64,000 bases of DNA from assembly GCA_017505705.1 (NCBI GenBank), contig JAFVOS010000011.1, positions 45,449-109,448 of the forward strand, given 5' to 3'. The position numbers and the translations under genes were made by a program. Shown one piece after another: positions 9,960 to 52,182 of the stretch (the stretch's first letter is position 1; the number at the start of each line of letters is the position of its first letter). The notes beneath the pieces were generated by a model, which was not told the origin of the DNA, ran no database searches, and saw only the letters and a program-made list of their open reading frames with translations. The stretch comes from Alphaproteobacteria bacterium (GTDB lineage: Bacteria > Pseudomonadota > Alphaproteobacteria > Rs-D84).

Positions 9960-10274
9960 TTACCACCCCTGTTCTGTTAAATCTAATTCCAGTCGTGCAA
10001 CATCTGACATTTTTGATAAATCCCAGGGCGGATCCCACACCAATTCTATACGCACCGGCGTTTCACCACAGACCGACTGCACTGCATCTTTCACCTGCAG
10101 CATTAATTCTTCCATCATCGGGCATGTTGGACTGGTAAAAGTCATTGTTATAACAACTTCTTTGTCACTAATATCAATATCATAAACCAATCCTAAATCC
10201 CATATATTCACAGGAATTTCTGGATCATACACAGTTTTTATTGCATCAATAATACATTCACGACACACCGTCAT
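9960..10274 (-). CDS. sufT: Fe-S cluster assembly protein SufT (DUF59/MIP18 family)
   Basis: 104 aa. ...VYDPEIPVNIWDLGLVYDIDI...TFTSPTCPMME... is the DUF59 signature. Overlaps sufS by 4 nt. Confidence 0.75.
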   Translation of the reverse strand: MTVCRECIIDAIKTVYDPEIPVNIWDLGLVYDIDISDKEVVITMTFTSPTCPMMEELMLQVKDAVQSVCGETPVRIELVWDPPWDLSKMSDVARLELDLTEQGW

Positions 10275-11401
10275 TTTATAATCCTTTGTACGATATCAAC
10301 AAAATCATCTATATCTTCAATTGTATTATACGCCCCCACCGACACCCGAACAGACGATTCGATTTGCAATCTTTGATGAATCCATGTGGCACACATATTT
10401 CCAACCCGCACACATACACCATGCGCCCCGACCAGTGCCCCAAAATCCATCGCATGCATATTATCAACAACAAAAGTTAACATTGATGCATCACGTGGTG
10501 TAAGTATCCTGATATGATTTAATTCTTTTAACTTGTCATACAAATATTTAATCAGATTTAAATCAGGTCTTTTTTCATTAATTTCATCAATTGCCACCCC
10601 CATACCTGCTATTTGCGTCAATGGCAATGTACCGGCCTCAAAAACATCTGGTCCATCCCCCAGTTCCACACGTCCATCGGCATAGACCCGATTTACCATT
10701 CCGCCACCAAACTTATCTGGCATAAACCGATTCGGATTTTTTATATACATAACCCCAATTCCCGTATCCGCACCAATCTTGTGACCAGACCAAACGACAA
10801 AATCTGCATCCCATTTTTGCACATCAATATTTTCATGTACTATATATTGAGCCGCATCCACCACGACAATAACATTTGGATTTTTTTGACGTGCCGCCTT
10901 TATAATTTTTTCCACATCTTGTGGCATTCCCATAACATTAGACATCGCCGTCACAACCATAACATCCGCAAATGGGATTCTGGTTGTATCTATATTTAAT
11001 TTATCATCCAGTGGACACTGCACAATATTTGCCACCGTCATTTGAAATGGCAAACGTGCACTGTGATGATCCAAATCTGACACCGCCACCGTCATATCCG
11101 ACGAGATATTCAGCATACGAACGATTCGATTAATTGCATCTGTTGTCCCAGATGTAAAAACAATGTTGCGCACATTAGCATTCATACGCATTGCAATTTT
11201 TTTTCGAACATCTGCGACCATTTTATCCACATTGCTGGCCCGACCACAAACACCACGCCCAGCATTAGCATATTTATTTCGCAAAAAATCACTTTGTTCT
11301 TCGATAACAGCATTACTTTTCAAATAACTTGCTGCGGCATCTAAGTATATGAATTTATTCATTTTGTTTTTCTCTTGCATTTTGCGCTGATTATAATACA
11401 C
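10271..11401 (-). CDS. sufS: Cysteine desulfurase SufS/class-V aminotransferase
   Basis: 376 aa. FIYLDAAASY N-terminal motif, PLP-lysine region ...VVWSGHKIGADTGIGVMYIKN... and C-terminal ...RVSVGAYNT... True start may be the internal MNKFIYLD. Confidence 0.8.
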   Translation of the reverse strand: MYYNQRKMQEKNKMNKFIYLDAAASYLKSNAVIEEQSDFLRNKYANAGRGVCGRASNVDKMVADVRKKIAMRMNANVRNIVFTSGTTDAINRIVRMLNISSDMTVAVSDLDHHSARLPFQMTVANIVQCPLDDKLNIDTTRIPFADVMVVTAMSNVMGMPQDVEKIIKAARQKNPNVIVVVDAAQYIVHENIDVQKWDADFVVWSGHKIGADTGIGVMYIKNPNRFMPDKFGGGMVNRVYADGRVELGDGPDVFEAGTLPLTQIAGMGVAIDEINEKRPDLNLIKYLYDKLKELNHIRILTPRDASMLTFVVDNMHAMDFGALVGAHGVCVRVGNMCATWIHQRLQIESSVRVSVGAYNTIEDIDDFVDIVQRIIK

Positions 11402-11436
11402 TCTCGCTGAATATCAATAATTATAAGGAGAAAAAG

Positions 11437-11763
11437 ATGGCACTAGAACATGCAAATGATACTACATTTGACACATTGATTGGCAATGGTATTACGCTTG
11501 TAGACTTTTGGGCATCATGGTGTGGTCCATGCCGAATGTTTGGCCCAATTTTTGAAAATGTTTCTGACAAGGTTCCAGATGTAAAATTTATCAAATTTGA
11601 AATTGACGAATCGAATCGACGTACTCCTGCTAAATACGGTATTCGCAGCATTCCATCTGTACTGGCATTTAAAGATGGTCAATTAATTGAAGCACGCAGT
11701 GGCCTGATGGACGAAGACACTGTAATTGATTGGATAAAGGAATTACAAAATGGGAACAGTTAA
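11437..11763 (+). CDS. trxA: Thioredoxin
   Basis: 108 aa with the WASWCGPCRM active site. Strong RBS AAGGAG 8 nt upstream. Confidence 0.95.
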   Translation: MALEHANDTTFDTLIGNGITLVDFWASWCGPCRMFGPIFENVSDKVPDVKFIKFEIDESNRRTPAKYGIRSIPSVLAFKDGQLIEARSGLMDEDTVIDWIKELQNGNS

Positions 11764-12181
11764 TTATAGAACAATTGAATTGGCATCCAATTACAAGCCC
11801 AAACTTTCTGAACCATACATGTGTCCAGAACAATTGGCATATTTTTACCACGTACTGAACAGTCAACGTGAAGAATTGATAAGCGAACGCGACGATGTTT
11901 TAAATGCTGTACGTCTTGCTGACAAGACCGAAGCAGCTGGTGTCGGCGACGATTCGGATAACGCAGCATACAACCAAGACATCACAATGGATTTACGCAT
12001 GTCTGAACGCAATAACAAATTACTGCAAAAAATAGATGCTGCCCTGGAACGTATTTCAAATGGTACATACGGTTTCAGTGTTGTATCCGGCGAAGAAATT
12101 GGTATTAAACGTATGATGGCCCGTCCATTGGCGACAATGACCGTCGAAGAACAAGAAGAATACGAAAGTCGTAAAAACTAA
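11750..12181 (+). CDS. dksA: DksA-family RNA-polymerase-binding transcription factor, lacking zinc-finger cysteines
   Basis: 143 aa. Coiled-coil region with DxxDxA-like acidic tip (GVGDDSDNAAYNQD). C-terminal GTYGFSVVSGEEIGIKRMMARPLATMTVEEQ aligns to DksA [31 protein letters not shown] with all four Cys replaced. Start may be the downstream ATG at 11819. Confidence 0.7.
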   Translation: MGTVNYRTIELASNYKPKLSEPYMCPEQLAYFYHVLNSQREELISERDDVLNAVRLADKTEAAGVGDDSDNAAYNQDITMDLRMSERNNKLLQKIDAALERISNGTYGFSVVSGEEIGIKRMMARPLATMTVEEQEEYESRKN

Positions 12182-12193
12182 TTGTAATACCAG

Positions 12194-12231
12194 AAAAAAA
12201 TCCCCCCATTCCTTCCTGGGGGATTTTTTTA
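12194..12231. terminator. Bidirectional rho-independent terminator hairpin (C6-loop-G5 flanked by A/T tracts)
   Basis: Sequence aaaaaaaTCCCCCCattccttcctGGGGGAttttttt lies between convergent dksA and the Cys-rich gene. Confidence 0.8.
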
Positions 12232-13584
12232 TTGGATACCAACATTAAACTCATCAGACCAACCGGCGACTGTCTGACCACCAATTGAACAATTCAAATC
12301 TTCAAAACCATCTTCTATTTGGTTTTTCTTTACAACATGACTGGTAATCAATCCACCTGCTGTCCCCAGCACAACCCCAGCAATCGAATCGGACGCCAAG
12401 CGTGCTGTATTAAACTTGCCCTGGGCATCACGCCATTTTTTTACATCCAAATCCGACGTCAATGTCTGCAACACAGAAACAGATTCACTAATCTTTGATT
12501 GCGCCGTACTAAAACCAATTACAACGACGGTATTATCTTTTTCTGGTTCATCCACACACGTTGTATCAACCACCACTTTCAATTCATCATACAATCGCAA
12601 GAAAACATCTTTATCCGGTACAGCTGCACAATATGCTTCCAGCGCACTGATTTGCGTCAAAACATCTGCAAAGTTCACACAGCGATTTTTCCACGACACG
12701 ACATTTGCCAACAGCATCGCATCACAGATATATTTTTCTGGTTCTGTCACAACAACTGTTTTTGTCTTGCATACCCATTCATTATTTTCCTTAACAAAAT
12801 CCCCACCATTTACACAAACACACTTATTTACACTTGGCGTCCAGATTGTTTCTGTTCCTGGTTTTGCGCAACATGCCTTACATACCTCAGATGTACATAC
12901 TGACGGATGACATTTACCAACCACTGGATTTACTGGTTTTACCGGCTTAACCGGATCAACTGGCTTCTTATTATCAACCATCCCTGATTTACACACACCA
13001 TTTGCATCTGGCGCTAACCCCTCTCTACATTTTGTTGCCAAACAGAAGAATTCGGGTCCCTCCACACACACACCCTTAAATTCAATCCCTGATGGATCAG
13101 ATAAACGATAACCACTACAATCAACATTTGTCAGTGTTCTGCACCCACCACCTGCATCTGGTACACAATCACCAACTGCCACATCACCAAAACCATTTGT
13201 ATGACAAATTCCGTCTTCTACAACAACCCATTTATTATTTAAGCCAACTAGATTTTTACATTGATATTTTTGTTCTTTGTTAATAACTTGCCCTTTAAAA
13301 ACATGCCCTGGCCACATTGTCACAACCGATTGTGGCTTACACCCACTTACATTTTGTCCAGCATCACATTCATACGCCAACCCTGCCCCAGAATTTTTTC
13401 GACCTGAATTAATAAAACCCTGTTTAGTTAAATTCCAATCATTTTCATTTTTATACAAAAACTCATCATCTTCTGGATTTTGATTTCCAACATAGCTAAC
13501 CGTTGTATAGGAATTACATTCTGGCGCAGCCATTGTAACCATTGGCATAACAACAAATATCGCTAACAACAAAAACTTTTTCAT
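12229..13584 (-). CDS. Cysteine-rich secreted protein, unknown function
   Basis: 451 aa. Signal peptide MKKFLLLAIFVVMPMVTMAAP. More than 40 Cys. PVDPVKPVKPVNPV proline repeat. No recognisable enzymatic motif. Confidence 0.6.
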   Translation of the reverse strand: MKKFLLLAIFVVMPMVTMAAPECNSYTTVSYVGNQNPEDDEFLYKNENDWNLTKQGFINSGRKNSGAGLAYECDAGQNVSGCKPQSVVTMWPGHVFKGQVINKEQKYQCKNLVGLNNKWVVVEDGICHTNGFGDVAVGDCVPDAGGGCRTLTNVDCSGYRLSDPSGIEFKGVCVEGPEFFCLATKCREGLAPDANGVCKSGMVDNKKPVDPVKPVKPVNPVVGKCHPSVCTSEVCKACCAKPGTETIWTPSVNKCVCVNGGDFVKENNEWVCKTKTVVVTEPEKYICDAMLLANVVSWKNRCVNFADVLTQISALEAYCAAVPDKDVFLRLYDELKVVVDTTCVDEPEKDNTVVVIGFSTAQSKISESVSVLQTLTSDLDVKKWRDAQGKFNTARLASDSIAGVVLGTAGGLITSHVVKKNQIEDGFEDLNCSIGGQTVAGWSDEFNVGIQ

Positions 13585-13651
13585 TACATTCCCCCATATA
13601 ACATCAAGTATATTTTACCACAAAACGATACCCCAACAAAACAAAATCTAA

Positions 13652-13690
13652 TAAAAATCCCCCCAGGAAGGATTGGGGGGGGATTTTTTA
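13652..13690. terminator. Bidirectional terminator hairpin; inverted copy of the 12194-12231 hairpin
   Basis: Sequence aaaaaTCCCCCCaggaaggattGGGGGGGGAtttttta. Stem and loop are the reverse complement of the hairpin at 12202-12222 with one loop mismatch. Confidence 0.75.
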
Positions 13691-14980
13691 TCTGCACTCT
13701 TCAATCAATTGTTGAATCTGTGCACTTAAAACCAAATCTGTTGCTTTTTGCTTTTCAATCTGACGAACCGCATACAATACCGTTGCGTGATCACGTCCAC
13801 CAACATAATTTCCAATTTCTGCCAAAGACAAACCTGTTGCATTTTTTAATACGACCATCATTGTCTGGCGTGCCAAGACCAAATTACGACTGCGCCCACT
13901 GCCACATACTGCATCATATGAAACGCCTAATTTTTCACACATATTTTTTACCATTGCCAATGGTGTCTTGGCACGTTGCAATGTATCTGCCAGCAATCGT
14001 GTTGCAACATCCATATCAACAGCTGTGCCCATTAATTCTGTGTATGCCTTGATTTTTGTAGCAACCCCAGCAACCAAATGACCATCATTTGCAATGCGTA
14101 CTGCCAACTGTTCTGCAACATTTGCATTAACACCTGCACGACGCAGCAATACTGATTTAACATGTGCATTTGGTGCAACAACATCTGCAACCAACCCAGA
14201 CGCCAACAAAGATTGTGCACGACGATCAAATCCTGTCAAACTATTTGGCGCAACATTCGCAGTCAGAACAACATTTTTACCTGCTGCTTTCAGATCAACA
14301 ACCAACTGCAAAAATTCATCCATTGTCGCTTTTTTTCCGGCCAAGCTTTGCACATCATCCAAAATAAACGTATCACAATTACGGCAATAATCTTTGAATG
14401 CGAACACTGTACGATCATGCAGGCTGCGTGTAAATTCAGCAACAAACTGTCCACCATTCATCATAATAACACGACCATTTGATGCATTTTTAACACATTC
14501 CATCAGCAATGATTTCCCACAACCTGCCGCCCCATGAACATACAGTGGTGAAAACGCAGCTGCCCCACTTGCAATTTTTTTACATGCCGACAGCACAAAA
14601 ATATTATCATCTGTTGCAACAAAAGAATCAAATGCAATTGAATTGTTCGACTGTGCAACAACTGCTGGTGTGAAAGATTGTGTGTTATTATCATTTGCAA
14701 CCGGTGCAACATTTGCAACAACTGTGCGTTTTGCCGACCCCACAAACAGATTCAATGTCAAACCAAATGTTTCTGCAACACTGCGCAAAACATTACCATA
14801 CGCAGACATAACATAATTAAAGGAAAACTGATTTTGCACACCACAATTCAACACATCGTTTTCAATTTCAAAATTGATTGGTGCAATCCAAGAAGTAAAA
14901 CCAGCAGCATCAATTTTTTCGGCAACAGCCCCCTTGATAACATCAACATTTATCATTTGCTTTGTTGCCGTCATCTGCAT
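13688..14980 (-). CDS. dnaA: Chromosomal replication initiator protein DnaA (divergent, short)
   Basis: 430 aa. AAA+ Walker A HGAAGCGKSLL, Walker B FILDDVQ, and C-terminal domain IV ...LSLAEIGNYVGGRDHATVLYAVRQIEK (DnaA signature helix). Confidence 0.85.
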   Translation of the reverse strand: MQMTATKQMINVDVIKGAVAEKIDAAGFTSWIAPINFEIENDVLNCGVQNQFSFNYVMSAYGNVLRSVAETFGLTLNLFVGSAKRTVVANVAPVANDNNTQSFTPAVVAQSNNSIAFDSFVATDDNIFVLSACKKIASGAAAFSPLYVHGAAGCGKSLLMECVKNASNGRVIMMNGGQFVAEFTRSLHDRTVFAFKDYCRNCDTFILDDVQSLAGKKATMDEFLQLVVDLKAAGKNVVLTANVAPNSLTGFDRRAQSLLASGLVADVVAPNAHVKSVLLRRAGVNANVAEQLAVRIANDGHLVAGVATKIKAYTELMGTAVDMDVATRLLADTLQRAKTPLAMVKNMCEKLGVSYDAVCGSGRSRNLVLARQTMMVVLKNATGLSLAEIGNYVGGRDHATVLYAVRQIEKQKATDLVLSAQIQQLIEECR

Positions 14981-15347
14981 TCTTTTTCTCCTTTCCTTCC
15001 TGTTTTATGCCTGTGCATCCATCACAAATTGATTGCAAAAGACACCCGCACATAAACGCTAAATTCTTCCCTCACACGAAAAAATTTAGTGTTTATGTTG
15101 CTTTAACTTCTACTCTCTCGCTTTGGCACTAAACTTTTCACACATATTTGCAGTAAAAAATCCAGTGTCGTTTCTTTTTTTTGTTTTTTGATATTTCTAT
15201 CGTTTGGATACGTCAAATAATTTATAAGATTAATTTCAATTTACAACCACTTTAAAAGCAATTTTTAACATTTATTTTTTTGACAACGATTCGTTTTTTT
15301 GCCCGATTTCTGCACTTTGTATATACACTGTATATACATTTAAAAAA
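14981..15347. promoter_or_regulatory. AT-rich dnaA upstream/intergenic region with tandem palindromes; candidate dnaA promoter or origin-proximal region
   Basis: 367 bp non-coding stretch between the dnaA start and the dprA stop. Contains TGTATATACA-c-TGTATATACA at 15318-15338, long T-tracts and A-tracts. No canonical TTATCCACA box was found by eye. Confidence 0.3.
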
Positions 15348-16403: not shown

Positions 16404-16437
16404 AAAAATAAAATCCCCATCTGGGGATTTTATTTTT
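16404..16437. terminator. Bidirectional terminator hairpin
   Basis: aaaataaaATCCCCatctGGGGATtttattttt. Confidence 0.75.
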
Positions 16438-17317
16438 AACACGCCAGCAGGCTCTTATAATCAAACCCACGCATATTTTCTATATCCTCTGGCTTTGGAT
16501 TGCATGCATCTGGCATTGGATTTTCTTCATCCCATTGCGTTTCTTCACAATATTGTTTTAAGGTTGTCAACGCATCAACAATATCATTATATTTAGAAGA
16601 CTTTTCTTGTTTTAAAACCTTCATCTGCGAACACAGCAATTCTGTTCCGCTTAATGCAGCCTGTCCTTCGACGGCACCACCAATTAATTTATTACCGAAC
16701 AATTCCATTGCGCCAACCCCAACTGCTGCGCCACCAACAGCACCACCAACAGTCGCCCATGTGCGTCCCTTCTTTTTGGCATCCAAGATACGATTACGCA
16801 ACGCATCCTTATCAGCCCATTCACCACACGTAATATTTTCACCCATTATAAAATATTTAGTTGGTACATCAGACACATTTATCCGAGAATCACTTGATTT
16901 CAACTCTACCTTTACAAAACAGACATTATTTTCAGGATTTTCAACATCTTCAATCATCGAAGAATAATTTCCAATATTGCTATAACGAGATGCCCAAACA
17001 AAAGTCGCCCCTACACCAATATTATTATTAATACATGCCGCCTTTTCACGTTCACGCATATCTTTTTCTGGTACGCCCCCCATATCCGGCTTTACATCTT
17101 CAATCTTGTCCGATGGCTCTTGTGGTTTTTGTGCATCACCCGGCTTATTATTATCTTCATTTGTTGCTGCGATATGTTCCAACTGGCGCTTTGACACCGC
17201 CGCCCTGGAATCCATCTGATTTGCCATTGATGCGCGACCACGCCCAGATTCTGGAACCGCTGCAAACGCAGACACCGACACAGAAAAGACAGTAAACAAT
17301 GCCACCAGTAATTTCAT
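16436..17317 (-). CDS. Secreted protein of unknown function (Gly-rich C-terminal region)
   Basis: 293 aa. Signal peptide MKLLVALFTVFSVSVSAFAA. Acidic/lysine-rich N-region. GGAVGGAAVGVGAMELFGNKLIGGAVEG glycine zipper-like segment. Ends ...SLLAC. Confidence 0.55.
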   Translation of the reverse strand: MKLLVALFTVFSVSVSAFAAVPESGRGRASMANQMDSRAAVSKRQLEHIAATNEDNNKPGDAQKPQEPSDKIEDVKPDMGGVPEKDMREREKAACINNNIGVGATFVWASRYSNIGNYSSMIEDVENPENNVCFVKVELKSSDSRINVSDVPTKYFIMGENITCGEWADKDALRNRILDAKKKGRTWATVGGAVGGAAVGVGAMELFGNKLIGGAVEGQAALSGTELLCSQMKVLKQEKSSKYNDIVDALTTLKQYCEETQWDEENPMPDACNPKPEDIENMRGFDYKSLLAC

Positions 17318-29445: not shown

Positions 29446-29652
29446 ATGAAAAAAATATCTGTATCTTTATCAGGTCACCAAACCAGTATAACCCTGGAAC
29501 CAGAATTTATTGATGTATTAAAACGCATTGCAAACGCACGTGGTGTATCTGTTGCATCAATAATCTCTGACATTGACAATACACGCACCCCTGATTCCAA
29601 CCTGTCATCTGCGATTCGTGTATGGGTCCTGACCCAGGTTATGAAGCATTAA
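29446..29652 (+). CDS. Ribbon-helix-helix domain DNA-binding protein (alphaproteobacterial 'SLSGHQTS' RHH family)
   Basis: 68 aa. MKKISVSLSGHQTSITLEPEFIDVLKRIANARGVSVASIISDID...NLSSAIRVWVL. A 1-nt gap separates it from the upstream gene. Confidence 0.7.
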   Translation: MKKISVSLSGHQTSITLEPEFIDVLKRIANARGVSVASIISDIDNTRTPDSNLSSAIRVWVLTQVMKH

Positions 29653-31691
29653 TTATTTTCTTTTTTATCAACTGCTGACATTGCAATTGATGACACGCAC
29701 GCAAATCCCAATATGATTATAAACCACCAATTCATACCAATCATTCTGTATGGCGTCATATGTGCACCCCATACAAAACCATCGATATGTCCCGACACAC
29801 CAATTGGGATACTGTCAATAATTGTACCATCGGCTGCAATAAATGCACTTATCCCGGAATAGTTTGCCCGCACAATTGGCAGTCCTGCTTCAATTGCATA
29901 ACGTCGCACCATATCCAGATGTTGATATGTCCCTGGCGTATATCCAAACCAGTTATCATTTGTAATATTAATAATTGCATCTGGCATCAGCCCTGCCCCA
30001 TCTGGCAACAATGAATCAGAAAAAATTATTTCATAGCATACCGCTGGTGCGAACACAAAATCACGTCCCGACACATTCAGACTTATCAGTTCTGGTCCAT
30101 CACCTGGGACCAGATTCGCTGGACTTGGCAAAAATCCCAACGGTCTGTATTCTCCAAACGGCACCAGATGAGATTTGCTGTATACGCTAAGAATCCGGCC
30201 CAAATCATCTGATACCACCAATGAATTTTGCACCCCAACAGATGGTTTATATGTCGACGCACCAACAACAACATTTGTTCCAAGCGCCGTTGCCAATGGC
30301 ATTTCATCACCATCGACCAAAACAAATGGATATGCAGTTTCTGGATATATAACTAAATCAGCACGTGATTGTCCCACCCCTAAAAACAATAATTTTCGCA
30401 GATTTTCTTCTGCATTTTTCATTGCCTGTTCACGATTATGTGTTGCTTTCTGCACCTGGGAAAAAGCAGGTTGTACCACACGAATCATTTGTGGTTTCAT
30501 CTCTGCCCCACTGTCAGATTTCATCATATTTTCACGCCCACACGCAACACCAACCAACATCAATAATATAAATACTAACAGCGAACCCAGCACTGCTTTA
30601 TTTTTTCTGTTTCGCAAAAATTCAACAACCGCCCCAGAAAACCCAACTATTATAAACGTCAGGCCCAACGCCCCCCACAACGACATCGAATTTGCCAACA
30701 TTGGAAAAGGCATTGCAATATTCGCAATTGGATTCCATGGAAAACCCGTAAACAGCCACTCACGCAGCCACAGCACAACCGTCCACACACCTGCAAAAAA
30801 GAACGGACGTGCCCCAGGTTTTACATTAACAATTCTTAATATTGCAAATGGCACACCAAATATTATCACACCTGCCAACCCCAAACCTATTACCCCAGGA
30901 ATTGTCCAAATTGCATATTGTGCGGTCAATTCCGGCACCACATATATAGAATTCAAGACCCACCAAAACATTGAAATTCCATACATTGCACCAAATGGCG
31001 ACACACGTAATAACGCCTGCCAGAAACCAACCTTTTTTGTTGTCCGCACTGTCAACCAATATGCCCCCATAAAACATAAAATCGTCATCCACCAAACATT
31101 AAAAGGTGCAAACCCAAACGCCGCACATGCACCAAACACTGCGTACAGCGCATATTGCCAAAATCCATCATCACGTATTTTCAGTTTGTTAAAAAACGCA
31201 AACACACCTGCCCCAGGACAACAAGATTCATCACCACAGACAAACTCTTGTTCATCATCATACGGATTTTTGATACCAATTTTTTTCAGTGCTTCAATCT
31301 CTTTAGATTCCATTTTTTTTGCTTGTCTATCATTTAAATGATCATATCCAATCAAATGCAAAACACCATGCACAACCATATGTGCCGTATGATTTTCCAT
31401 CGTTATATTTTCTGTTTTTGCCTGTTGCATCACCGTATCAAATGAAATATAAATATCCCCCAACAGAACATCATCCCCCAGTTCAAACGATAAAACATTT
31501 GTTGGCATATCTTTGCCACGATATTCACGATTAAGCGCATGAATTTCCGAATCATTTGTTAATATAATCGACACCTCTGATTCGCCATATCCCTTTAAAT
31601 CCAGCGCAGACACGATTTTTTCAAAATCGATTTTGAATTTTTTCCAGCGTTTATCATGAACATCAACATATACTTTCATTTGCATTCCCAT
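29649..31691 (-). CDS. lnt: Apparent fusion: rRNA maturation RNase YbeY (N-terminal ~150 aa) + apolipoprotein N-acyltransferase Lnt (C-terminal ~520 aa)
   Basis: 680 aa in one frame. N-terminal ...HMVVHGVLHLIGYDHLNDRQAKKMESKEIEALKKIGIKNPYDDEQEF is the YbeY H3xH motif and typical end. The Lnt N-terminal TM region (ALYAVFGACAAFGFAPFNVWW...) follows a ~20 aa linker (VCGDESCCPGAGVFAFFNKLKI) with no stop. The C-terminal CN-hydrolase domain (...VCYEIIFSD...) completes Lnt. Confidence 0.75.
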   Translation of the reverse strand: MGMQMKVYVDVHDKRWKKFKIDFEKIVSALDLKGYGESEVSIILTNDSEIHALNREYRGKDMPTNVLSFELGDDVLLGDIYISFDTVMQQAKTENITMENHTAHMVVHGVLHLIGYDHLNDRQAKKMESKEIEALKKIGIKNPYDDEQEFVCGDESCCPGAGVFAFFNKLKIRDDGFWQYALYAVFGACAAFGFAPFNVWWMTILCFMGAYWLTVRTTKKVGFWQALLRVSPFGAMYGISMFWWVLNSIYVVPELTAQYAIWTIPGVIGLGLAGVIIFGVPFAILRIVNVKPGARPFFFAGVWTVVLWLREWLFTGFPWNPIANIAMPFPMLANSMSLWGALGLTFIIVGFSGAVVEFLRNRKNKAVLGSLLVFILLMLVGVACGRENMMKSDSGAEMKPQMIRVVQPAFSQVQKATHNREQAMKNAEENLRKLLFLGVGQSRADLVIYPETAYPFVLVDGDEMPLATALGTNVVVGASTYKPSVGVQNSLVVSDDLGRILSVYSKSHLVPFGEYRPLGFLPSPANLVPGDGPELISLNVSGRDFVFAPAVCYEIIFSDSLLPDGAGLMPDAIINITNDNWFGYTPGTYQHLDMVRRYAIEAGLPIVRANYSGISAFIAADGTIIDSIPIGVSGHIDGFVWGAHMTPYRMIGMNWWFIIILGFACVSSIAMSAVDKKENN

Positions 31692-44739: not shown

Positions 44740-44804
44740 ATAAATTCTCCTTACTTTAATACTGGCACAATAGTAAAAAAACCTAGAAAAGTAAAGGACA
44801 AATA

Positions 44805-50904: not shown

Positions 50905-52182
50905 ATGTTGGACATAAAATTTATACGTGAAAACCCAGATGCTGTTAAGCGTGCATGCGAATTAAAGGGCATCGATGACAGAACCGATGAAATATTGGCA
51001 TTGGACACACGTGTGCGTGAATTAAAGACCATCACCCAGTCTAAGACAGCTGAAAAAAACAAAATCACACGTGAAATCCCCACTGCTACAGACAAAGCAC
51101 CATTAATTGCACGCAGCAAAGAAATTGCAAACGAAATTGCATCTGACATGGCCGAATTGGCGACCAAAGAAGCCGAATTGGATGATTTATTGCATCGTGT
51201 TCCACAAATTCCGGCACCAACTGTACCATTTGGTCACGACGACAAAGATAATGTAGAAGTACGTCGTATCGGCACACCACGTGAATTTGATTTCACCCCA
51301 CGCCCACAGTGGGATTTGCTGGAAATGAATGGCTGGTGGAAACCAGAAAAAATTGCATCAATTTGTGGGACACGCACATATGCACTGTTTGGCGAAGCCG
51401 CTGAACTGGAACTGGCAATACAAACATACGTTTTGCAAAAATTGATGTCCAAGGGATTTACATTTGTAAACTGTCCATCAATTACCAAACCACAAACAAT
51501 ATTTAACGCTGGTCACTTTATGGGTTCGGACCCAGCTGTCATGAATAACGATGTATTTATGCTGACCGATACAGATCGCTGTCTGGCTGGAACCGCTGAA
51601 ATCATCTTAAATTCTTTGCACAGCGACGAGGTTTTAAACGAAAAAGACCTGCCAATCAAATACGCTGGTTTTTCACCATGTTTCCGCAAAGAAGCGGGCG
51701 CTGCTGGTCGTGACACACGTGGAATTGTGCGTATACATCAATTTAACAAGGTTGAACAATACATATACTGCACCCCAGAACAATCAGACAAAATGCACGA
51801 ACATCTGTTGAACAACCTGTGCGAAGTCATGGAAGATTTAGAATTACCATATCGTGTAATCGAAGCATGCACCGGCGACATGGGATTTAACAAGGTAAAG
51901 ATGCACGACGTCGAAGCATGGTTCCCCAGCGAAAACGCATATCGTGAACTGGGTTCTTGTTCATCGATTGGTCAATTCCAGGCACGCCGTACAAACACTC
52001 GTTTTCGTGCATCCGACGGCAGTTTGCAGTTCTGTGCAACCTTAAACAACACTGGTATTGCCCTGCCACGTGCAATTGTACCTGTAATTGAAAATCACCA
52101 GAATCCAGACGGTTCGGTAAACATTCCAAAAAAATTACAGGCTCTTATGGGCGGCCGCACAAAAATAGGTGGCAAACACTAA
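50905..52182 (+). CDS. serS: Serine--tRNA ligase
   Basis: 425 aa. MLDIKFIRENPDAVK... N-terminal coiled coil and class II motifs (...FRKEAGAAGRDTRGIVRIHQFNKVEQ...). Confidence 0.9.
   Translation: MLDIKFIRENPDAVKRACELKGIDDRTDEILALDTRVRELKTITQSKTAEKNKITREIPTATDKAPLIARSKEIANEIASDMAELATKEAELDDLLHRVPQIPAPTVPFGHDDKDNVEVRRIGTPREFDFTPRPQWDLLEMNGWWKPEKIASICGTRTYALFGEAAELELAIQTYVLQKLMSKGFTFVNCPSITKPQTIFNAGHFMGSDPAVMNNDVFMLTDTDRCLAGTAEIILNSLHSDEVLNEKDLPIKYAGFSPCFRKEAGAAGRDTRGIVRIHQFNKVEQYIYCTPEQSDKMHEHLLNNLCEVMEDLELPYRVIEACTGDMGFNKVKMHDVEAWFPSENAYRELGSCSSIGQFQARRTNTRFRASDGSLQFCATLNNTGIALPRAIVPVIENHQNPDGSVNIPKKLQALMGGRTKIGGKH

Follow-up and report, generated by a model that had tools for sequence, protein, structure and literature searches.

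Does a gene that lies between two inverted copies of one hairpin owe its position to insertion, or can such an inverted repeat arise from the terminators of its neighbours? The question is raised by a 451-aa open reading frame (ORF) that encodes a cysteine-rich protein next to dnaA in contig JAFVOS010000011.1 of the uncultured alphaproteobacterial assembly GCA_017505705.1. We analysed a stretch of 64,000 nt around this Cys-rich gene (the window; all coordinates without a locus prefix are window positions). The Cys-rich gene is a lineage-specific core gene of the reduced-genome order Rs-D84, an old resident adjoining dnaA and not a recent cassette. Taken as a whole, the explanation that we consider probable is that this core gene lies between the terminators of dnaA and dksA, whose shared loop is under selection, and that the hairpins are not insertion scars.

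Inverted copies of one hairpin do flank the gene, as a preliminary description of this DNA had reported. The arms of the inverted repeat extend over 36 nt (12194-12229 and 13653-13688) and are 83% complementary. On the plus strand, the left hairpin reads AAAAAAAT-CCCCCC-ATTCCTTCCT-GGGGG-ATTTTTTT and the right hairpin AAAAAT-CCCCCC-AGGAAGGATT-GGGGGGGG-ATTTTTT; written on one strand, the loops (AGGAAGGAAT and AGGAAGGATT) differ by one mismatch. With up to 3 mismatches to a 22-mer allowed, the motif was found at only these two places in the 64 kb, and none of 100 shuffled controls contained a match. The predicted RNA folds have energies of -18.2 kcal/mol (right) and of -20.9 and -19.4 kcal/mol (left), with the A and U tracts extending the stem, and a terminator scan called both hairpins as terminators on both strands. 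Rfam gave nothing credible around the locus.

The position of the Cys-rich gene is conserved. Among the related loci (numbered here with the prefix L), the order plsY-hyp-dprA-dnaA (hyp, hypothetical protein gene) is followed by the gene in L001 (75% identity to the window protein), L044 (74%), L046 (62%), L002 (59%), L026 (42%) and L031 (34%), and in L053, a locus found through DksA; L024 (39%) has the same order with one OmpA gene interposed. Altogether the gene adjoins dnaA in nine relatives at 34-98% protein identity, directly downstream in all but one, and its orientation relative to dnaA is identical in 10/10 dnaA-linked loci, window included. The neighbour on the other side is gyrB in L002, L026, L031 and L046, and dksA-trxA-sufS in the window, L001, L044, L045 and L053. 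Because the neighbour beyond the gene differs while dnaA is constant, the link is to dnaA, and it is the other side that has been rearranged. The preliminary description had noted that dnaN would normally be expected at this position and had called the gene content non-canonical. That expectation comes from Firmicutes and Gammaproteobacteria; rpsT-plsY-hyp-dprA-dnaA and then the Cys-rich gene is the norm in every relative examined, and the arrangement, non-canonical only against textbook model organisms, is canonical for the order Rs-D84.

The region upstream of the gene is conserved as well. An extended -10-like element (TGTGGTAAAAT in the window, TGATAAAAT in relatives) is shared with L001, L002, L044, L045, L046, L020, L026 and L031, and the consensus TG(A/G)TAAAAT with the leader TTGAT(A/G)TTATATGGGGGAATGTAATG upstream of the ATG is conserved down to 59% protein identity. 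Together, the -10-like element and the leader point to a promoter of the gene's own, placed downstream of the dnaA hairpin.

These observations bear on the reading first suggested by the inverted repeat, that it is the footprint of a cassette or mobile element: the gene would have been inserted between dnaA and trxA-dksA with terminal inverted repeats of ~36 bp, in the manner of an integron cassette, a miniature inverted-repeat transposable element (MITE) or a composite transposon. The genuine 36-nt inverted repeat around exactly one gene is what such an event would leave, and paralogs occupy further junctions of housekeeping genes: L020-23 have one behind rpsK, and L029 has one between mutL and yajC, where the window has none. 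We nevertheless think a footprint very improbable. The comparison of dnaA neighbourhoods that the preliminary description had proposed found the gene next to dnaA also where the flanking hairpins are unrelated to those of the window (L002, L046, L026 and L031). L044 and L053 have an extra terminator within the supposed bracket, and the hairpin is found as well at the ends of clpX and of a lipoprotein gene, sites at which the Cys-rich family has no member. No direct repeat is seen outside the arms (ATACCAG versus ATCTGCA), the flanks share no homology, and no transposase or integron integrase was found near the gene. The gene is not a recently acquired cassette, because it adjoins dnaA in relatives at 34-98% identity and has a conserved putative promoter and leader of its own. 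It differs from an integron cassette in that promoter-like element, in having two inverted hairpins instead of one 3' attC, in the lack of an adjacent integrase and in its fixed position at dnaA. Unlike a MITE or composite transposon, it is not flanked by a target-site duplication; every dnaA-linked locus has the gene, even where the hairpins are unrelated, and none was seen with the site empty.

To which genes, then, do the hairpins belong? Orthologs of the right hairpin are found in L001, L044, L045 and L053. The left hairpin lies 12 nt past the dksA stop codon and abuts the stop codon of the Cys-rich gene. This hairpin belongs to dksA, because in L044 and L053 the Cys-rich gene is followed, before the dksA hairpin, by an unrelated terminator of its own (CCCCCAATCGGGGG and CCCCCTGTTTGGGGGGG, respectively); in the window, as in L001 and L045, the dksA terminator appears to serve the Cys-rich gene from the opposite strand. 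The right hairpin would thus terminate dnaA, and the left would terminate dksA and be shared by the Cys-rich gene. In the three co-directional cases (dnaA to Cys-rich gene, L006 and L007), UCCUUCCU reads in the sense of the upstream gene every time. The two hairpins of the window have the same orientation in the sense of the gene that each follows, and are mutually inverted because dnaA and dksA converge. In the clade whose members have dksA on the far side of the gene, the TCCTTCCT loop is found in each of the two hairpins. The hairpins on the two flanks of the gene in genomes with the gyrB arrangement are ordinary terminators unrelated to the window pair, and L026 has no obvious hairpin on the dnaA side. 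About ten other terminators of the form AAAATCCCC...GGGGATTTT occur in the window, with different loops.

Inverted repeats around a variable surface-protein gene could also be recombination sites that flip the gene in phase variation. The chance of this is, in our view, negligible: the gene and its putative promoter both lie between the repeats, so inversion would leave expression unswitched; the orientation to dnaA is the same in all ten loci; no invertase is adjacent; and the variation that we did observe is replacement of an N-terminal module, described below.

The preliminary description had offered a dispersed family of bidirectional terminators as an alternative to the footprint. A scan for the exact hairpin pattern over one genome per species (~186,000 species) returned 17 exact matches, of which 8 were in Enterousia or other alphaproteobacterial metagenome-assembled genomes, one per genome and none at dnaA. 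Six of these eight are the clpX terminator (ClpX 93-100% identical, hence one orthologous site), and one follows a 107-aa lipoprotein gene (L006). Metagenomes of the Joint Genome Institute (JGI) held 11 exact matches, only one of them of the alphaproteobacterial terminator form (one more clpX copy), and two further copies, whose stems are of 4-5 bp, are present in L053, which comes from the assembly that also holds L006. Outside the A/T tracts, no flank homology was detected between the types of site. All copies follow the form A-tract, C4-8, a loop with UCCUUCCU, G4-8, U-tract. The hairpin is therefore a low-copy family with at least four types of site (dnaA, dksA, clpX and the lipoprotein gene). 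The earlier alternative is thus closer to the truth than the footprint, in a modified form: the family is low-copy, the two hairpins of the window are owned by housekeeping genes (dnaA and dksA) and not by the Cys-rich gene, and the loop core is conserved well past the requirements of a generic terminator. The dozens of copies that would have marked a generic terminator were not found in the species genomes (17 exact matches, one per alphaproteobacterial genome), in a count by an exact pattern that misses variants.

It should be noted that clpX itself is absent from the window; a 425-aa ORF at 50905-52182 was considered as a candidate and is not clpX. Immediately after the clpX TCCTTCCT hairpin, L009 (position 4251) and L036 (3065) have a second terminator, AAAATCCCC-AGAT-GGGGATTTT, which also lies between the gene for a 293-aa protein and dprA in the window (16410-16431) and in L001; with a loop of 4 nt, this match may be chance. 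Repetitive extragenic palindromic (REP) sequences are present in hundreds of copies, together with a REP-associated tyrosine transposase (RAYT). Like REPs and bacterial interspersed mosaic elements (BIMEs), the hairpins described here are short palindromic units in intergenic 3' regions, often between convergent genes. They differ in number (2 copies in 64 kb, and one exact match per genome in 8 species), in the lack of flank homology and in having no associated transposase.

What sets the family apart is the loop. Its 8-nt core, TCCTTCCT, is identical in 20/20 copies, among which the stems range from 4 to 8 bp, the loop flanks are A, AA, AT, ATT, TTA or TCC, and a trailing T is present or not. 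Identity at four-fold degenerate sites of dnaA among the four carrier lineages is 0.59-0.64, near saturation, and from these values the rough chance of an unconstrained 8-mer remaining unchanged at two sites in four lineages is <1e-6. In 7 loci the clpX site shows no change over the 35 nt of the hairpin; its 30-nt preceding spacer is variable, and beyond the hairpin the sequences do not align. Two controls lacked such constancy. At comparable divergence, L002 and L046 have mutually unrelated terminators after dnaA, and the terminator that separates the 293-aa gene from dprA either has a variable loop (AGAT, GCAAT, GCAT) or has given way to another. An invariant core in 20 copies, set against nearly saturated synonymous sites, suggests that the loop core is under purifying selection. 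The core would then be a recognition element for a putative binder as well as part of a terminator.

The hairpins could, however, be ordinary terminators with functionless loops, their likeness reflecting common descent and occasional short-patch gene conversion, and the match to the dnaA leader (see below) reflecting coincidence with a purine-rich ribosome-binding site. All terminators of these genomes have the form AAAAATCCCC...GGGGATTTTT, which gives 10-14 nt of homology on either side of any loop. Low copy number fits this account, as do the conservation of the dnaA leader with or without the hairpin, the lack of covariation, and the fact that AGGA-rich strings are typical of ribosome-binding sites. 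Against it, no change is seen in the 8-nt core among 20 copies, which span four types of site and lineages with 59-64% four-fold identity, whereas stems, loop flanks and adjacent spacers have changed and the control terminators changed their loops or were replaced. The flanks of the loop are also specific to the site (AA at dnaA, AT at dksA) and persist across lineages, which argues against ongoing homogenization. We therefore regard a functionless loop as unlikely, with perhaps a modest chance of being correct. Short-patch conversion over the shared A-tract/C-run and G-run/T-tract arms is a plausible route by which a selected loop spread between terminators.

Intrinsic bidirectional terminators resemble these hairpins in their G-C stem, U-tract and symmetric A-tract, and in lying at stop codons, common to convergent genes (here dksA and the Cys-rich gene). 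They are unlike them in the loop, which is typically of 3-8 nt and unconstrained, and here is of 10-12 nt with an 8-nt core invariant across non-homologous sites and diverged lineages. Several known motifs were considered for the identity of the core. A DNA-uptake sequence and a dif site fail on copy number, the DnaA and CtrA boxes do not match, and a CsrA site (GGA in the antisense loop) was rejected as transcription does not consistently use the GGA-bearing strand.

In the dnaA leader, the string AGGAAGGAAAGGAGAAAAAGAATG contains AGGAAGGA, to which the loop core is exactly complementary; this element lies 13 nt upstream of the ATG, with the AAGGAG Shine-Dalgarno sequence just 3' of it. An 8-nt perfect complement thus exists between the dnaA terminator loop and the dnaA leader, a 3' motif and the ribosome-binding region of the same mRNA. 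Counting both strands, the window has three occurrences of AGGAAGGA where 0.54 would be expected, namely in the two hairpins and the dnaA leader. The leader element, (A/G)GGAAGGAAAGGAG, is kept in 9/10 dnaA loci examined (window included), also in loci without the hairpin, and is unpaired in the minimum-free-energy fold of the leader itself. When the loop was paired with 57 start regions, that of dnaA gave the best predicted duplex (-13.4 kcal/mol, versus -10.5 for the next best), and complementarity reaches 9-10 nt for loops of the dksA type.

This match raises the possibility of a riboregulator, in which the UCCUUCCU loop, exposed at the 3' ends of dnaA, dksA and clpX mRNA, would be a regulatory seed that pairs with AGGAAGGA in the dnaA leader and tunes DnaA translation or mRNA stability. 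C-rich hairpin loops are a feature of RNAIII of Staphylococcus aureus. The excess of AGGAAGGA, the rank of the dnaA duplex, the unpaired state of the leader element and its conservation across the order all speak for such pairing. There are also precedents: the UCCCCUG motif in the untranslated region at the 3' end (3'UTR) of S. aureus icaR pairs with its own ribosome-binding site/Shine-Dalgarno region (PMC3868564), and the 5'- and 3'-UTRs of Bacillus subtilis hbs interact (PMC5737220). The dnaA loop is like the 3'UTR anti-Shine-Dalgarno elements of icaR, hbs and RNAIII in being a pyrimidine-rich 3'-end motif, complementary to a purine-rich ribosome-binding element and held in a hairpin loop. 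It is unlike the icaR type in that the pairing is predicted only, the motif lies in a terminator loop and on several mRNAs (dnaA, dksA and clpX), the target is upstream of the Shine-Dalgarno sequence, and the organism is an uncultured alphaproteobacterium. On the other side, the match was noticed post hoc; both partners are invariant where present, so that there is no covariation; and clades without the hairpin conserve the leader just as well. The loop is closed by a 6-bp G-C stem, which would permit a kissing interaction of only 8-10 nt, and the copy after the lipoprotein gene (L006) stands outside any logic of replication control. On balance we think the riboregulator improbable, with a small chance of being correct. 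If it were true, the loop would pair with the leader in cis on dnaA mRNA, and in trans from the other mRNAs or from their 3' fragments. In a bacterium with few protein regulators and a genome of <1 Mb, DnaA synthesis would thereby be tied to the output of regulators of stress and proteolysis, and the Cys-rich gene would merely share one of the terminators.

Further upstream of dnaA (~15057-15091, minus strand) there is an AT-rich inverted repeat, ACTAAATTTTTT...(8-17 nt)...GGAA(A/G)AATTTAGCG, followed by GTTTATGTGCGGGTGTCTTTTGCAATC. It is present in 9/9 dnaA loci with a variable loop, and may be a regulatory hairpin or an element of the dnaA promoter.

Several points weigh against the interpretation that a resident core gene is flanked by dnaA and dksA terminators with a selected loop. 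The four carrier lineages may be one clade, in which case a single ancestral event, or two, may account for the co-occurrence of the dnaA and dksA hairpins. Except for L053, synteny was read from loci selected through homologs of the Cys-rich protein. The exact hairpin pattern was too strict, as it missed both L053 copies with their 4-5-bp stems, and the number of copies per genome is known to be small only within the sequence examined. The loop of 10-12 nt, which shrinks to 8 nt if the inner A-U pair is formed, is longer than expected of an intrinsic terminator. That the promoter is used, that transcripts end at the hairpins and that these work in both directions is deduced from the sequence. 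Finally, the C-terminal module of the protein, described below, has low confidence in the structural model and borderline hydropathy, and inner-membrane, outer-membrane and oligomeric anchoring are indistinguishable. The features of the locus are collected in Table 1.

Table 1. Genes, signals and protein modules around the Cys-rich gene of the window
Feature	Position	Strand	Description and basis
sufS	10271-11401	minus	
trxA	11437-11763	plus	Pfam Thioredoxin
dksA	11750-12181	plus	Pfam DksA_N; 100% identical to P0286, named 'RNA polymerase-binding protein DksA' at NCBI
trxA-dksA pair	11437-12181	plus	converges on the Cys-rich gene
Left hairpin, putative dksA intrinsic terminator	12194-12230	plus	dksA sense: A-tract, C6, AU-UCCUUCCU, G5, U-tract
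Cys-rich gene, 451-aa ORF	12229-13584	minus	ORF list, homologs and synteny
Near-invariant C-terminal module, aa 384-451	12232-12435	minus	W(K/R)D..G.FNTARLASDSIAGVVLGTAGGLITS.VVKKNQ...GFED..C.IGGQ.VA.WGDEF.VGIQ; invariant alignment columns
Pro/Val-rich linker, aa 205-221	12922-12972	minus	KKPVDPVKPVKPVNPVV; pLDDT <50; 3' breakpoint of allelic replacement
Strain-variable N-terminal ectodomain module, aa ~8-205	12972-13564	minus	blastn and protein comparison with L045
Predicted signal peptide, aa 1-20	13525-13584	minus	MKKFLLLAIFVVMPMVTMAA; hydropathy 1.99 over aa 4-22; alignment
Invariant leader, ribosome-binding site and start	13576-13597	minus	ATGGGGGAATGTAATGAAAAAG; alignment
Extended -10-like element	13612-13622	minus	putative own promoter of the Cys-rich gene, downstream of the dnaA terminator
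Right hairpin, putative dnaA intrinsic terminator	13653-13689	minus	begins at the dnaA stop codon; dnaA sense: A-tract, C8, AA-UCCUUCCU, G6, U-tract
dnaA	13688-14980	minus	Pfam Bac_DnaA, Bac_DnaA_C, DnaA_N
AGGAAGGA in the dnaA leader	14994-15001	minus	exact complement of the loop core

The Cys-rich protein itself has 25 Cys residues (5.5%), and not the more than 40 that had been stated at first; 21 are in aa 1-301 and 4 in aa 302-451, so that the description of the C-terminal ~150 aa as Cys-poor was roughly right. Also borne out were the 451-aa ORF, its secretion-like N-terminus (hydrophobic segment aa 4-22) and a repeat, PVDPVKPVKPVNPV at aa 208-221. A Cys at about +2/+3 of the mature end is conserved in the family alignment, which shows no consistent lipobox; a lipoprotein signal was rejected, as the residue preceding this Cys is not kept as G/A/S. 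The C-terminal module forms the C-terminus in all family members, and profile matches always reach the last residue. It contains a borderline transmembrane helix at aa 400-418 (SIAGVVLGTAGGLITSHVV; Kyte-Doolittle hydropathy, as throughout, 1.54), then KK and a tail of 30 aa with invariant Cys, GG, Q and D. An N-terminal signal with a C-terminal helix and KK is what is expected of a Sec-exported envelope protein anchored at its C-terminus, a predicted topology for which the second hydropathy value is borderline.

An AlphaFold2 model built with 91 homologs had a mean predicted local distance difference test score (pLDDT) of 73.6. It predicts a beta-rich N-terminal domain (aa ~30-200, pLDDT >90 over most of it), a disordered Pro-rich linker (aa 205-223), a small beta unit (aa 225-275), a helical bundle (aa 289-377) and, at low confidence, the most conserved part of the family (aa 391-451). 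Fold searches with this model returned only generic helical bundles. The protein would thus be Sec-exported and disulfide-rich, with a modular N-terminal ectodomain, a Pro-rich linker, a Cys-knot-like segment, a helical stalk and a C-terminal hydrophobic anchor with a short tail.

A search with the Cys-rich protein gave >1100 matches, all unnamed or 'hypothetical' and all from uncultured Alphaproteobacteria. A family profile run against 1.84 billion representative proteins matched at least 1000 clusters (50% identity), of which 833 fell below 1e-30, and a search with the C-terminal part alone returned short fragments only. The hidden Markov model searches that had been suggested at the outset found no described family: there was no match in Pfam (for all 91 members), in NCBIfam or in a sequence-profile search of PDB. 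The homologs belong to Rs-D84 / Ca. Enterousia, uncultured gut Alphaproteobacteria, and the related loci come from 'Candidatus Enterousia sp.'. Members of the order Rs-D84 are gut bacteria with reduced genomes of <1 Mb and a presumed partner-dependent lifestyle (PMC12306168).

More distant members of the family are found after rpsM-rpsK (L020-23) and between mutL and yajC (L029). The mutL-yajC junction of the window (44740-44804) is only ~65 nt long and holds no family gene, and tblastn found no second copy of the family in the window. Paralogs have thus colonized other housekeeping junctions, and the dnaA-linked copy is the stable one. The sequence 3' of the paralog differs between the samples L020 and L021, indicating that this junction has been rearranged.

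Cassette-like exchange does occur at this locus, yet within the gene. L045 represents another strain of the same species and is 99.4% identical over window positions 10004-12971 and 98.5% identical over 13565-13700; between them (12972-13564) there is no blastn alignment. At the protein level, 245/246 residues of aa 206-451 are identical and aa 1-205 are only ~30% identical. Because its flanks are near-identical and aa 1-205 are not, recombination has replaced the N-terminal module; one breakpoint lies in the signal peptide and the other in the Pro-rich linker. The ortholog in L053 (4510-6387, minus strand, of L053; GCA_045645645.1) has 625 aa, with three tandem N-terminal modules of the pattern DDEFLY...ECD...GHYFKG...YRC, and many family members have only the C-terminal half in common.

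From its architecture, its variability and the lifestyle of the organism, the Cys-rich protein is most likely an envelope or surface recognition (adhesin-like) protein with a diversifying outer module. The trimeric autotransporter adhesins and the variable outer-membrane antigens of Anaplasmataceae combine a conserved anchor with an exchangeable outer domain. The Cys-rich protein resembles such anchored variable surface proteins in its predicted signal peptide, modular N-terminal part, stalk and conserved C-terminal module, and in the replacement of the exposed part between strains. It is unlike them in having no YadA_anchor, Pfam, NCBIfam or PDB match, in its single hydrophobic helix and 30-aa tail with no recognizable beta-barrel, and in its Cys-rich ectodomain. 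Five loci in which dksA lies apart from dnaA (L048-L052) encode a 216-aa YadA_anchor (trimeric autotransporter) protein and a 191-aa protein of no assigned family ~1.2 kb downstream of dksA; the Rs-D84 / Enterousia clade thus also has conventional autotransporter adhesins.

The surroundings of the locus offered further observations. The window has 41% G+C and its plus strand is strongly C-rich. Every 2-kb bin has a negative GC skew (-0.07 to -0.34), and the sign stays the same at dnaA; judged by skew, the replication origin falls outside the 64 kb although dnaA lies inside. dnaA is directly upstream of the Cys-rich ORF with a gap of 103 nt, and beyond it lie dprA, the gene for a secreted 293-aa protein and plsY. 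The 293-aa protein (16436-17317, minus strand) has a glycine-zipper-like stretch and no Pfam or NCBIfam match; it was rejected as a paralog of the Cys-rich protein and sits between plsY and dprA in every relative examined, making it a second conserved protein of unassigned family near dnaA. trxA (11425-11442, plus) and dnaA (14976-14993, minus) have the same ribosome-binding string, AAGGAGAAAAAGA(A)TG, which forms an 18-nt inverted repeat. Two tandem genes for Cys-rich secreted proteins (21617-22750 and 22683-23717, both minus), with 30 Cys each (8-9% Cys) and a mutual identity of 40%, share a C-terminal CxCxxGYYG...CxxCP...DCY motif; they have no Pfam match at 1e-5 and belong to another family than the dnaA-linked gene. 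A 680-aa ORF (29649-31691, minus) joins a YbeY endoribonuclease to an apolipoprotein N-acyltransferase (LNT_N plus CN_hydrolase), either as a gene fusion or as two genes merged by the ORF call.

The architecture of the locus is ordinary, as is its synteny within the clade; what is unusual is the constrained loop, its match to the dnaA leader and an unannotated, strain-variable protein family. As a general point, an inverted repeat around a gene can arise from convergent genes that have the same kind of terminator, and comparative data are needed before it is taken for an insertion scar. Widespread and uncultured, the gut bacteria of Rs-D84 / Enterousia have genomes of <1 Mb and probably depend on partners; their surface and regulation are almost uncharted. 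If the match between loop and leader is functional, it would represent a compact RNA-level control of replication initiation in these bacteria. The Cys-rich family is very large, disulfide-rich, predicted to be anchored and unannotated, and its dnaA-linked member, with a module that is swapped between strains, is a natural candidate for the recognition of a partner or host.

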